Shown: positions 3,253-7,856 of the stretch, piece after piece | Numbering within the stretch: the first letter of the stretch is position 1 | How the letters are laid out: the number at the start of each line of letters is the position of its first letter | NCBI GenBank assembly: GCA_028716725.1 | Contig: JAQUPG010000007.1 | Location: forward strand, 10,205-74,204 | Length of the DNA stretch: 64,000 nucleotides | Reading direction: 5' to 3' | Source of the DNA: Patescibacteria group bacterium | GTDB taxonomy: Bacteria > Patescibacteriota > Patescibacteriia > Patescibacteriales > JAQTRU01 | Position numbers and translations under genes: made by a program | The notes under the pieces: model-generated | What the model was told of the DNA's origin: nothing | Seen by the model: only the letters and a program-made list of their open reading frames with translations | Databases searched by the model: none

Positions 3253-3321
3253 TTATTTATATTTATGTTAATTTATTCTGTTGAACTTTCAAAACTAAAC
3301 CACAATTCCTAGGAGGAAGCC

Positions 3322-4149
3322 ATGAAAAAGCTGACATTCTTTTCGCTCGTCATTCTTTCCCTGTTTCAGTTCGGGAGTACAGTCTGGAGCATGGGGTTAA
3401 AACTCCCCGAGCTTCCGGAAACGGTGGCAGAGTTTTCTCTTCCCGAGAATAATATTTCCCTCACCGATTCTTCTTCGCCAAAATCTTTTCCTAATCTGGC
3501 TGAAGGCGGAGAAAGCCAATTTTCTTCTGGCTACTGGTCAAGCGACCTTTATCCAAAGGCAATTGCCAGGGATGGAGTCTGGGATAAAGTCAAGAGAACC
3601 TGGAACGGAGAGATAGCTTACGTTATTGAAAAAATAACTGGGAAAGGCAGAAGTAATATTTTTATCTGGACCGGTGTTCATTCTTTTTTTGATTCTATCA
3701 CCGATGCCAAGGCCCATTCTCGCGGGAAAATGAAATATTTTTCCGGCGACGATGATTGGCATATGTGGAAGAATTGTCGAGATTTTTCCCTCGTAATGCT
3801 GATGCTAAATGAGGGAAACCGAATATTCACAGAAAAATTAACAGCCAAGGGGGCAGCGGGAGATCTTGCGTGTATTGCTTTTTGGAGATTTGTAATCCAT
3901 AACTCTGTAATGAAAATTTCCAAGGGCGGATTTCCCGCCTATAATGACCCCTATTATAATCAACATGCTTTACCATACTGGGGGTTAGACGGGAAAGACC
4001 ATTATATCGCCACCGGCCGCTGGTCTACTCCGATCTGCGACATCATATCCGTAACAGCGGCGATTTACCTGCTGAAACAACCTGAAACTCCCATCTTGAA
4101 CAAAATCTCTGTTTCAGATGGAATGGTTGGTTTCAGAACGACGTGGTAA
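3322..4149 (+). CDS. Hypothetical secreted protein (opposite-strand orphan inside the ABC operon)
   Basis: Signal-peptide-like N-terminus MKKLTFFSLVILSLFQFGSTVWS. SD ctaggaggaagcc before the ATG, its own terminator, and higher G+C than its neighbours. Confidence 0.65.
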   Translation: MKKLTFFSLVILSLFQFGSTVWSMGLKLPELPETVAEFSLPENNISLTDSSSPKSFPNLAEGGESQFSSGYWSSDLYPKAIARDGVWDKVKRTWNGEIAYVIEKITGKGRSNIFIWTGVHSFFDSITDAKAHSRGKMKYFSGDDDWHMWKNCRDFSLVMLMLNEGNRIFTEKLTAKGAAGDLACIAFWRFVIHNSVMKISKGGFPAYNDPYYNQHALPYWGLDGKDHYIATGRWSTPICDIISVTAAIYLLKQPETPILNKISVSDGMVGFRTTW

Positions 4150-6252: not shown

Positions 6253-6648
6253 TTATTTTATTTTTTCTATATTAGCAATAATCTTTTTAAATTTAGAAAT
6301 GAATTCATCAATATTGAAATCGTTTTTTATAAAATAATGCTTTATTCCCAGGTCTAAGCTTCGGCTCCGGCTATCCTCGTCGCTCAAGTTAGTAAAGATA
6401 AATATCGGCAGGAGAGAAATTTCTTCGTCCGCTTTTATGGCTTTTATCACGTCAAAACCGTCCACGGCCGGCAGAATTAAATCTAGAATTATAAAATCAG
6501 GCTTAAATTTTTTTATTTCTCTAAGCAAATCGCCAACTTCTATGTTGCCGCTGCTTGTCCCCACTAAAAACCCCTCCAGGCTTAATTTCGCCTGCAGACT
6601 GGATAAAATATTGGCGTCATCTTCAGCTATATAAATCCTTTTTGGCAT
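6253..6648 (-). CDS. Response regulator, receiver domain only (CheY-like)
   Basis: 131 aa. Acidic pocket IAEDDANIL, phospho-acceptor context IILDLILPAVDGFDV, conserved ...IFIFTNLSD...K. No output domain. Confidence 0.85.
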   Translation of the reverse strand: MPKRIYIAEDDANILSSLQAKLSLEGFLVGTSSGNIEVGDLLREIKKFKPDFIILDLILPAVDGFDVIKAIKADEEISLLPIFIFTNLSDEDSRSRSLDLGIKHYFIKNDFNIDEFISKFKKIIANIEKIK

Positions 6649-6654
6649 ATTAAT

Positions 6655-6683
6655 ATTATAGCAATATTAAAAATATTTTTCAA
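6655..6683 (-). promoter_or_regulatory. Sigma70-like promoter of the RR-HlyD-ABC operon (near-leaderless geometry)
   Basis: On the minus strand: TTGAAA (6683-6678), 17-nt spacer, TATAAT (6660-6655). Only 6 nt (attaat) separate the -10 from the ATG at 6648. Confidence 0.55.
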
Positions 6684-6693
6684 ATTCAAGGTG

Positions 6694-6715
6694 GGGGCAA
6701 TTCGCGAATTGCCCC
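6694..6715. repeat. 22-bp perfect palindrome ggggcaattcgcgaattgcccc just upstream of the -35
   Basis: Read directly. It lies between the peptide-gene terminator and the RR promoter. Confidence 0.85.
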
Positions 6716-6734
6716 TACTTATTATTTTTTAGGT

Positions 6735-6773
6735 TTTTAAAAAATTAAAAGGGGGGTATCTGCTAGATACCCC
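6735..6773 (-). terminator. Rho-independent terminator of the small peptide gene
   Basis: ggggtatct-gct-agatacccc (6753-6773), followed on the minus strand by ccttttaatttttt. Confidence 0.8.
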
Positions 6774-6809
6774 GCTTTTGCCTTCCTTTGGAGGCATTTC
6801 TCCGCTTGA

Positions 6810-6953
6810 TTACTCGTTGTTCTGGACGTCCGCATTGACGAGGTTGTAGCCGCGACCGTTCACCACCTGGTTGAATCCACTGTTGTTGCTGTTGTTACCG
6901 TTGTCCTGAGGGCGCCCGCGATTGTCGAGGGCGCCGGAGAGAATGGATTGCAT
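6810..6953 (-). CDS. 47-aa Asn/Gly/Gln-rich small protein (MQSILSGALDNRGRPQDNGNNSNNSGFNQVVNGRGYNLVNADVQNNE)
   Basis: Internal ATG of ORF 6810..7082, preceded by the consensus SD ttaaggaggaaaag. It has its own promoter and terminator. By my count 81 of 144 nt (56%) are G+C, with AAC strongly preferred over AAT. Confidence 0.65.
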   Translation of the reverse strand: MQSILSGALDNRGRPQDNGNNSNNSGFNQVVNGRGYNLVNADVQNNE

Positions 6954-7053
6954 CTTTTCCTCCTTAAGGAAAAAGAGCGTGATTGTTGTTTGAGGGCTTA
7001 GTGCTCTCAGCCTCCTTCCCGAAAGCTGCTCACAGCTTTTTGGGGTTATTTTT

Positions 7054-7082
7054 ATTATATAATATCTACTTGATTTTGCCAA
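7054..7082 (-). promoter_or_regulatory. Near-consensus sigma70 promoter of the small peptide gene
   Basis: On the minus strand: TTGGCA (7082-7077), 17-nt spacer, TATAAT (7059-7054). It starts right after the TAG stop of the upstream gene. A ~95-nt leader contains the hairpin aaagctgtgagcagcttt. Confidence 0.7.
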
Positions 7083-7085
7083 TGA

Positions 7086-7856
7086 CTACCTGTTAATAAT
7101 TTTTTCTAAATATTTTTTCGCTTCTAATTGCTCTCTTAAAGGATTTTCCAACTCAATTGCGCAAATCGGCGGAAAATATTTTACATATTTTTTAACATAA
7201 TCCAACTCGGATAAATCATGCAACCAATGATTATTGTAATATTTCCTTTTCTCGCCGTTTTCAATTTCAAAAAAGGGTTTTGTTCGCATGGCAGATATGT
7301 GGCCGAAGCCAACTTTATATTTTTTTAAGACAGTGGGGAATTTTTTATAACTTTCCAGTTTCTGCATCTGGCTATAATCATGCCAATGGCTTACGTCCAG
7401 ACAAAAACCGGCAAAAATGTCCAAAAGATGAAGAGATTCATTTGAAAAATTAATATGATTTTCTAAATAAATTTTTTTTAGATACCCCTTACTTCTGGCT
7501 AAAAAATCTCTATTTACCTTGTTAAAATGAGTATTAAAAAATTTCGTCTTAAATCTCTTTGTTAAGTAAGCAAATTCCCATTTTTTAAAATCATGCCTTA
7601 CATGGACAACCGGAATTTCTTTTAAACCAGTTTTCTCCAATAGCTTATAGAGCTCTTCCCTTTCCTTAATTTCTAAGCAAGTGGGGAAAAGCGCGATTTC
7701 TTTTAGCCCTAATTTATCAATTTCTTTAACCTTACCTCGCCAATCTGATTTATAAGTAGTGGTCAATCCTAAAAGTATTTTTGGTTTCACCCCGTTAGAA
7801 ATTTTTTTTCTTTCTTTCTCCATAATATTTTTGCCCTTGAATATCTCTTCCCCCAT
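7086..7856 (-). CDS. Hypothetical protein (start could be the internal MEKERKK at 7823)
   Basis: Long ORF in the operon orientation. I recognise no diagnostic motif confidently. The N-terminal KKISNGVKPK is encoded by one arm of an inverted repeat. Confidence 0.6.
   Translation of the reverse strand: MGEEIFKGKNIMEKERKKISNGVKPKILLGLTTTYKSDWRGKVKEIDKLGLKEIALFPTCLEIKEREELYKLLEKTGLKEIPVVHVRHDFKKWEFAYLTKRFKTKFFNTHFNKVNRDFLARSKGYLKKIYLENHINFSNESLHLLDIFAGFCLDVSHWHDYSQMQKLESYKKFPTVLKKYKVGFGHISAMRTKPFFEIENGEKRKYYNNHWLHDLSELDYVKKYVKYFPPICAIELENPLREQLEAKKYLEKIINR

Follow-up and report, generated by a model that had tools for sequence, protein, structure and literature searches.

A probable fast-evolving small-protein gene with a predicted Shine-Dalgarno hairpin, in a variable slot beside a response regulator-HlyD locus of Patescibacteria

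Typical RNA thermometers contain internal mismatches that let them melt in the physiological range. The definition of hydrophilins, among them RMF and YciG of Escherichia coli, requires more than 6% Gly and a hydrophilicity index greater than 1 (PMC7448490). Pumps of the MacB type do not move substrates through the cytoplasmic membrane, and the peptides known to be their substrates, STII and SDP, depend on Sec; in monoderms, MacB/HlyD systems protect against endogenous peptides (PMC5985334). Here we compare these systems with a short gene cassette of a Patescibacteria contig, located at 6735-7082 on the minus strand of the 64,000-nt stretch of DNA that was analysed (the window). The cassette is most likely a real but fast-evolving small protein-coding gene of a narrow lineage. 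The reading that we favour, with moderate confidence, is that it specifies a small disordered protein of the cytoplasm, restricted to this lineage and gated at translation, perhaps of the hydrophilin kind, and that it sits in a variable small-gene slot.

Relatives were found through homologues of the adjacent 131-amino-acid (aa) response regulator (RR) and then through the syntenic loci of their contigs. A preliminary description of the window had proposed looking for homologous small open reading frames (ORFs) beside MacB/HlyD operons, and such genes were found: two lineages carry an orthologous cassette at exactly the same site as the window.

L002, L003, L004, L018 and L049: cassette; RR 87-88% identical to that of the window; peptide MNMTLPGAHGNRGRPSFNGFNAVNGGNGVNRGFNQANSLNVKGVYNKV
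L005, L006 and L050: cassette; RR 74-76% identical to that of the window; peptide MVINRNARNNNGRRINGFEKVFNGGNSRLHDLQVNPRGGNNNVS

The orthologous products are P0122 (L002, 48 aa from the ATG proximal to the Shine-Dalgarno (SD) sequence) and P0123 (L005/L006, 44 aa). In all three lineages the ORF has 44-48 codons and its ATG follows an identical AAGGAGGAA by 5-8 nt. When the transcripts were aligned with MAFFT in a codon-unaware manner, the gaps inside the ORF were 6, 3, 6 and 6 nt long and those in the untranslated regions (UTRs) had arbitrary lengths. The other sense frames hold stop codons in at least one lineage, and the chance of an open frame after mononucleotide shuffling was 0.21, 0.16 and 0.11 for the three sequences. 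In the N-terminal block, 3 of the 13 differing codons are synonymous at conserved residues (Leu, Arg, and Pro). The self-contained gene of the preliminary description, for which a frame broken in relatives had been named as the refutation, was borne out, since both diverged orthologues keep the frame. The antisense frame is open as well because of the AAC/GTT codons, yet it lacks a start codon in the window, and neither signals nor a promoter are conserved for it.

The pairwise ratio of nonsynonymous to synonymous substitution rates (dN/dS) of the ORF was 0.53-0.62, compared with 0.10-0.12 for the RR gene. This ratio, also called for earlier, is below 1 but indicates weak constraint; at the protein level the ORF appears to be far less constrained than a normal gene. 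The dS of the ORF (0.63 and 1.22) matches that of the neighbouring RR gene (0.58 and 1.39), which argues that the cassettes are vertically inherited orthologues.

The G+C content of the ORF is 56.3% (81/144 nt), as had been counted, in a window of 39.7% G+C, so the genome is AT-rich only in a moderate sense. G+C at third codon positions (GC3) is 0.79-0.81 in the ORF against a mean of 0.41 (standard deviation 0.07, maximum 0.55) in 57 window genes, and the GC1/GC2/GC3 values of 0.57/0.34/0.81 show a coding-type periodicity. AAC is used 10 times, not 11 as first reported, and AAT twice; the strong bias stands, the ratio being 10:2 against 235:664 in the window genes (P = 6e-5). Against the same genes, the ratio was 9:2 in L002 (P = 2e-4) and 8:4 in L005 (P = 4e-3), and the GC3 of the window, L002 and L005 ORFs was 0.81, 0.73 and 0.57. 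In the window and L002 the C-ending bias is equally strong at unpaired and paired third positions, with 19/24 and 13/19 at those predicted to be unpaired. The persistence of the bias after about one substitution per synonymous site argues against both a recent foreign origin and neutrality. The preliminary description had left the choice between expression-linked bias and foreign origin. Selection fits better than a recent foreign origin, as the dS of the orthologues equals that of the RR gene, and the AAC/GC3 bias fits translational selection. The window genes that have an SD or are richer in GC3 are LemA, MreB, SecA, ParB-like, TauE, Maf, or unassigned.

By its sequence signals the cassette is its own transcription unit, with promoter, leader, SD, ORF, 3' hairpin and terminator. 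These elements, with the end of the preceding gene, are the following.

7088-7086, minus strand: stop codon of the upstream 256-aa gene, read from the sequence
7054..7082, minus strand: sigma-70-type promoter; -35 box TTGGCA at 7082-7077, 17-nt spacer, -10 box TATAAT at 7059-7054
7022..7039, minus strand: 5' leader hairpin AAAGCUG-UGAG-CAGCUUU near the predicted 5' end, in the minimum-free-energy and centroid folds
7011..7017, minus strand: second AAGGAGG copy in the leader (direct repeat D5), with no start codon behind it
6954..6974, minus strand: predicted SD-sequestering hairpin; arm UUUUUCCUU (6974-6966) pairs with GAGGAAAAG (6962-6954), loop AAG
6965-6959, minus strand: SD AAGGAGG, 5 nt before the ATG at 6953
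6810..6953, minus strand: ORF of 47 codons plus TAA (6812-6810); product, by translation, MQSILSGALDNRGRPQDNGNNSNNSGFNQVVNGRGYNLVNADVQNNE
6911..6935, minus strand: intra-ORF GC-rich hairpin GGCGCCC-UCGACAAUCGC-GGGCGCC over codons 7-15 (inverted repeat I14)
6779..6796, minus strand: 3'-UTR hairpin H1, UGCCUCC-AAA-GGAAGGCA, between the stop codon and the terminator
6735..6778, minus strand: intrinsic terminator; stem GGGGUAUCU-AGC-AGAUACCCC (6773-6753) between an A-run and a U-run

The promoter begins 4 nt past the stop codon of the upstream gene. As described previously, the TTGGCA-17-TATAAT promoter and a hairpin-bearing leader of about 95 nt are present, both on the minus strand; the promoter scores 11/12 against the consensus, transcription is predicted to start at ~7047 and the leader is ~94 nt long. 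In a 5-kb scan the promoter equals that of the RR gene as the best match, and the promoter-like matches of that scan are at chance level (14 found, 12.2 expected). It is kept in L002 and L005 as TTGGCAAAATyAArTAGAT...TATAAT. Conservation of the leader hairpin had been suggested as a check, and both lineages have a hairpin at the equivalent position. The upstream AAGGAGG copy is specific to the window; L002 and L005 do not keep it in this form. It might rival the true SD in pairing with the UUCCUU anti-SD. The 47-codon ORF was recovered with the peptide first quoted (GRPQDNGNNSNNSGFNQVVNGR is a stretch of the predicted product), which is identical to the GenBank hypothetical protein PHZ04_03520 of the Patescibacteria metagenome-assembled genome GCA_028712785.1. 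The stop codon sits 36 nt ahead of the terminator stem, with the separate hairpin H1 in between. The terminator has the 9-bp stem and T-run of the preliminary description, but with 5 of 9 pairs G-C it is not the GC stem that was claimed; the A-run and U-run flanks make it hairpin-symmetric on both strands.

A perfect 22-bp palindrome, GGGGCAATTCGCGAATTGCCCC, lies between this terminator and the -35 box of the RR gene (window 6694-6715). It occurs once in the window and has no counterpart in L002 or L005. Read on the plus strand, the palindrome is terminator-like with a T-run, and it might act as an operator or as a terminator, either a second or a bidirectional one.

The SD of the small gene, called perfect in the preliminary description, is present but is predicted to be base-paired in the stable hairpin at 6974-6954. 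The stem of this hairpin is perfect, with no internal mismatches, and its predicted free energy in the window is -18 kcal/mol at 10°C, -15.2 at 20°C, -9.9 at 37°C and -7.5 at 45°C. The same hairpin, UUCCUc-AAG-GAGGAA, is predicted in L002 (-11.2 kcal/mol at 37°C) and L005 (-9.6 kcal/mol at 37°C). It does not vary among the three lineages, an anti-SD UUUCCUy pairing with GAGGAAA around the AAG loop; 7 pairs are kept in the consensus fold, and most of the leader otherwise diverges. Because the SD is predicted to be paired, the gene is less plainly "strongly signalled" for translation than had been stated. The folds suggest that translation is probably off by default and that the hairpin must be opened. 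Only ~9 of the 58 window genes have a recognisable SD within 20 nt of their start, and most starts are preceded by A/T-rich sequence. The organism thus seems to rely mostly on SD-independent initiation, and perfect SDs stand out against this background.

Another sequence of this kind, UUCCU-A-GGAGGAA, surrounds the SD of a 275-aa plus-strand gene (window 3300-3321), an arrangement similar to the anti-SD/SD hairpin described here. Genes of this genome that have an SD may therefore share the motif.

As in thermometers of the fourU and ROSE types, a U-/C-rich anti-SD just upstream pairs with the SD in a short hairpin, the predicted stability of this hairpin drops with temperature, and the hairpin was kept as the rest of the leader diverged. 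Unlike those thermometers, the hairpin is perfect, much more stable and without mismatches that would help it melt, and it has no Rfam match. Judging from the predicted energies, it is probably too stable for a simple thermometer.

The transcripts as a whole fold far better than their dinucleotide shuffles, with z-scores of -3.84 for the window and -3.51 and -5.65 for the relatives, to which the terminator contributes a part. Four hairpins recur in the single-sequence and consensus folds, namely the SD hairpin, the intra-ORF hairpin, H1 and the terminator. In the consensus fold 19 of 61 pairs are changed on both sides, and three sequences are too few for covariation statistics. Such pairs are found in H1 (GGCUCU/AGAGCC in L002 and GGCUCUU/AAGAGCC in L005), and the terminators, at the equivalent place in both relatives, have compensatory changes in their stems. 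The intra-ORF hairpin appears in the fold of each single sequence as well as in the consensus; a change from CGC to CGU in L002 keeps a G-U pair, and the L005 stem has moved one pair inward. This hairpin overlaps the one block of the peptide that is well conserved, G-A-x-x-N-R-G-R-P, and the four-fold degenerate sites in its stem (GCC, GGG) are invariant. Rfam 15 gave no match to the whole window at gathering scores and none to the leader or ORF at E<=10. Its sub-threshold matches were limited to the terminator and palindrome region at 6644-6803, the best with 28.8 bits against a gathering score of 100. No tRNA genes were found in the window.

The three peptides contain 23-27% Asn and 13%, 19% and 14% Gly (window, L002 and L005). 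What is kept among them is length, Asn/Gly richness, NG dipeptides and scattered Phe/Tyr/Val-Asn motifs, and little of the exact sequence. Each has 2-3 NG dipeptides, RG motifs, and 2-4 aromatic residues in contexts like GFN, GYN, VVN, and VFN. The L002 peptide has Asn at every third residue, from 9-nt repeat units of the GGTNTCAAC type, and the window has the repeats AACAACAGC/AACAACAGT; these repeats point to evolution by repeat slippage. The mean Kyte-Doolittle hydropathy (GRAVY) is -1.09 for the window, -0.64 for L002 and -1.12 for L005, and the highest 9-residue means are 1.14, 0.21 and -0.06, so that there is no hydrophobic segment. The isoelectric points are 4.9, 11.7 and 12.0. The preliminary description had noted that the sequence has no signal peptide, no Cys and no double-glycine leader and that it looks disordered, and we agree: no Sec leader is present, a GA dipeptide occurs at residues 7-8 in two of the three peptides with no GG leader, and AlphaFold2, run on a very shallow alignment of three sequences, gave a predicted local distance difference test (pLDDT) of 49 and no secondary structure. 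This model fits an intrinsically disordered peptide.

All three peptides have the Gly content above 6% of hydrophilins, and those of the window and L005 also have the hydropathy that corresponds to their index, of which L002 falls short. They resemble hydrophilins further in a size of 45-60 aa, in lacking a predicted fold, and in being encoded by a stand-alone gene with signals for strong conditional expression. They differ in that there is no sequence similarity, KGG motif or Pfam match, in being Asn-rich and not Lys/Gly/Gln-rich, and in a charge that is not conserved. A likeness to Asn-rich prion-like or low-complexity "sticker-spacer" sequences, such as the N domain of yeast Sup35, is the polar Asn/Gly/Gln/Ser background with aromatic or aliphatic punctuation and RG motifs, and a composition conserved without sequence; unlike the Sup35 N domain, the peptides are free-standing, bacterial and only 44-48 residues long, and the likeness is in composition alone. 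Several other classes were considered and rejected. Unlike the hydrophobic, membrane-active toxins of type I toxin-antitoxin systems, which come with an overlapping antisense RNA, the peptide is polar, and neither an antisense promoter nor an antisense ORF is conserved. Judged by sequence alone, it is also no lasso peptide, microcin C, substrate of RTX/type I secretion or leaderless class-II bacteriocin, since Asp/Glu residues spaced to form a ring, modifying enzymes, nonapeptide repeats and a cationic amphipathic helix are all absent.

A search of 5.8 billion protein clusters with the window peptide returned only the peptide itself. With a profile of the three peptides, searched against the 5.8 billion clusters and, exhaustively with full HMMER, against 1.84 billion representatives, only the three orthologues were credible. 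Two further hits, P0124 and P0125, are proteins of 3,000-3,900 aa with short matches to internal repeats of the NTGNVTL type, and were judged spurious compositional matches. Back-translated scans of genome, metagenome and viral contigs with the peptide or its alignment gave no match, nor did the DNA pattern of the SD hairpin plus the intra-ORF hairpin when searched against viral contigs. Scanning 83 sequences (435 kb) with the transcript alignment by nhmmer brought up neither additional copies nor remnants. No credible match was obtained from Pfam, NCBIfam, PADLOC or PHROGs to the peptides, to the 68-aa ORF described below that takes their place in some relatives, or to the upstream 256-aa protein. 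On these searches the family appears to be a true orphan, with three members so far in three closely related Patescibacteria lineages.

By Pfam, the neighbours of the small gene are a receiver-only RR (131 aa), a HlyD-type adaptor (637 aa), an ATP-binding cassette (ABC) ATPase and a MacB_PCD/FtsX permease. The cassette had been placed directly upstream of an RR-HlyD-ABC operon. It does lie directly upstream of RR-HlyD in all three carriers, but in the window two opposite-strand genes part RR-HlyD from the ATPase and permease, which do not form one contiguous operon with them; in L005 the opposite-strand genes are absent and the five genes are contiguous. The two opposite-strand genes, at 1912-2478 (188 aa) and 3322-4149 (275 aa) on the plus strand of the window, both have strong SDs, and the product of the 275-aa gene has an N-terminal hydrophobic segment resembling a signal peptide.

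The RR gene has its own promoter, TTGAAA-17-TGcTATAAT, without an SD. The extended -10 box ends 6 nt before the ATG, which suggests a leaderless mRNA, and the gene appears to be leaderless. This layout is kept in relatives with and without the cassette.

RR start region: window 6648-6683 (minus strand); L002 4975-5003; L007 4985-5003; L016 1060-1101; L079 785-822

RR-HlyD(-ABC) was found in every relative examined in which the sequence downstream of RR was covered. The cassette is present in 3 of ~9 lineages with an RR identity of at least 73%, and the slot of the others is occupied as follows.

L016/L017 (RR 85%): terminator remnant only
L019 (RR 84%): unrelated 68-aa ORF
L079 (RR 81%): 30-nt gap
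L007 (RR 75%): 85-nt gap
L080 (RR 74%): 40-nt gap
L031/L020 (RR 73-74%): unrelated 68-aa ORF

The alternative 68-aa ORF encodes MKSKKGLKPGMQVKNLKTGNIAELRADSDHPRRLCPSADFGVFIRRRLPSGKWTYSFWVLKNIELVKE and lies at 796-1002 in L031 and, as its 3' part, at 1-131 in L019; in L020 there is only the terminator. In L031 it sits behind a homologous TTGGCA promoter, and the terminator that comes after it in L019 is homologous to the one in the L002 cassette. It had no match in Pfam, PADLOC or PHROG. In a neighbour-joining tree based on RR, the three carriers fall in one clade with L016 and L019. The site is a variable small-gene slot between a conserved 234-256-aa gene and the separately promoted RR-HlyD, and it looks like a hotspot for small-gene exchange. 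Since the slot varies while RR-HlyD is kept, the adjacency of the peptide gene to the pump is probably a positional coincidence.

The protein encoded upstream of the slot (window 7086-7856, minus strand; 234-256 aa) is 71-81% identical among six relatives and has invariant His, Asp, Cys and Glu positions. It had no match in Pfam, NCBIfam, PADLOC, PHROG or a PDB-sequence profile search, and a single-sequence AlphaFold2 model was unusable (pLDDT 40).

The locus resembles the pairs SDP/YknWXYZ of Bacillus subtilis and enterocin AS-48/As-48EFGH in that a small peptide gene stands beside genes for HlyD and a MacB-type ABC protein in a likely monoderm. The SDP and AS-48 peptides, however, are exported by Sec or a dedicated route and are hydrophobic or amphipathic, whereas the peptide here is polar, disordered and without an export signal; unlike those pairs, the pump is kept without the peptide in most close relatives. 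As the peptide has no signal and MacB does not carry substrates across the cytoplasmic membrane, the export or immunity module suggested in the preliminary description is not supported, given also that the pump is conserved without the gene.

The conservation of frame and the conservation of structure lead to different explanations of the cassette. The main rival to a small-protein gene, though in our view an unlikely one, is that a structured transcript of ~300 nt was selected as a regulatory or dual-function RNA or as a protein-binding platform, the ORF being tolerated or incidentally translated. It would account for the folding z-scores, for the four hairpins that recur in all three sequences with their 19/61 pairs changed on both sides, for the burial of the SD, for the coincidence of the best-kept peptide block with an intra-ORF hairpin whose GCC and GGG sites are invariant, and for a peptide as weakly constrained as a dN/dS of 0.5-0.6 indicates. 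It would not account for a frame, start-codon spacing and ORF length kept through a dS of 0.6-1.2, for intra-ORF gaps that are all multiples of 3, for a codon periodicity of 0.57/0.34/0.81, or for a GC3/AAC bias just as strong at the unpaired positions of the window and L002. Moreover, the terminator supplies part of the z-score, covariation from three sequences is without statistical weight, and neither the ORF nor the leader matched Rfam at E<=10. The same weak dN/dS would suit a young, nearly neutral proto-gene, low in complexity and expanded by 9-nt repeats, which an ancestral strong promoter expresses as it would any short ORF and which is freely lost or replaced. Only three lineages carry the gene and six others lost or replaced it, no homologue was found in the 5.8 billion clusters or 1.84 billion representatives, the repeats are visible in the window and L002, and the same TTGGCA promoter stands before the unrelated 68-aa ORF of L031. 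We nevertheless consider such a proto-gene rather improbable, because neutral decay in a genome of ~40% G+C should have erased the GC3 of 0.57-0.81 and the strong AAC preference, which are still there after about one substitution per synonymous site, and because SD, anti-SD, start spacing and ORF length are kept in three lineages.

The position of the gene has suggested two further functions. An exported toxin, signal or bacteriocin-like peptide served by RR-HlyD-MacB, on the models of SDP/YknWXYZ and AS-48, would agree with a gene directly upstream of RR-HlyD in all three carriers, with bacteriocin genes being typically small, strongly expressed, fast-evolving and patchy, and with the protection that monoderm MacB/HlyD systems give against endogenous peptides (PMC5985334). 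We regard it as very doubtful: the peptide lacks a signal sequence, a double-glycine leader, Cys and any amphipathic or hydrophobic stretch, and in the window it is anionic; pumps of the MacB type do not take substrates out of the cytoplasm, and the peptides they are known to handle depend on Sec (PMC5985334); the pump operon with its own promoter is kept where the slot is empty or holds an unrelated ORF; no maturation or dedicated export gene lies nearby; and PADLOC, Pfam and NCBIfam gave no match. The 12 Asn codons among 47, followed by a hairpin and a terminator upstream of an operon, also recall an Asn-sensing leader peptide, in which stalling on the Asn codons would control read-through into RR-HlyD. 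Such an attenuator is hardly credible, since the folds contain no alternative antiterminator pairing that overlaps the end of the ORF, the stop codon is separated from the terminator stem by 36 nt and another hairpin, the downstream RR, HlyD and ABC genes are unrelated to Asn metabolism, and RR, whether or not the cassette is present, has a conserved promoter to itself and a start that appears to be leaderless.

Several observations weigh against the gated small-protein gene that we favour. A hairpin of -10 kcal/mol over the SD could mean that the ORF is rarely translated, and the conservation of GA..NRGRP may reflect the RNA and not the protein, because the block coincides with a conserved GC-rich hairpin. 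On ~45 poorly alignable codons, a dN/dS of 0.5-0.6 represents weak constraint, which statistics cannot separate from relaxed or nearly neutral evolution. The net charge is -1.5 for the window peptide and +4.6 for those of L002 and L005, which is awkward for any single binding function, and with a GRAVY of -0.64 the L002 peptide misses the hydrophilin index. The promoter, SD and terminator are consensus matches only, and the codon bias is uncalibrated in the window, which holds no ribosomal-protein or other known highly expressed genes.

If the small-protein reading is right, the product would be a cytoplasmic disordered protein whose composition matters more than its sequence. The strong promoter and the persistent C-ending bias suggest that it would be made in large amounts when it is made, and the SD hairpin would keep translation off by default until a condition or factor opens it. 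Its likeliest role would be that of a condition-induced hydrophilic protectant or modulator like RMF and YciG, and not that of a cargo or partner of MacB/HlyD. A more speculative version, which we find improbable, is a dual-layer element of a type not described before and specific to Patescibacteria: a very stable, highly structured mRNA would be held silent by its locked SD until a cue set off the rapid synthesis of a prion-like peptide, rich in Asn/Gly and NG turns, that is selected for composition and acts by its material properties, the TTGGCA slot being an exchange hotspot for small effectors. The material roles of such a peptide could be condensate or gel formation, protection in desiccation or dormancy, or modulation of the interface between epibiont and host.

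Annotation of bacterial genomes is poorest for small proteins, and hardly anything is known about them in Patescibacteria, where genome reduction leaves little space for genes that can be spared. A 47-codon ORF flagged from raw sequence has here become a gene kept in three lineages and an orphan against billions of proteins. Its novelty is modest, as the cassette is a fresh orphan example of a familiar category, the lineage-specific small hydrophilic proteins with a regulated leader; its predicted RNA architecture is of interest. Should gated translation prove true, the cassette would offer a compact SD-hairpin model in a genome where most genes use no SD, and with it a modest lead for work on the small proteins of Patescibacteria.

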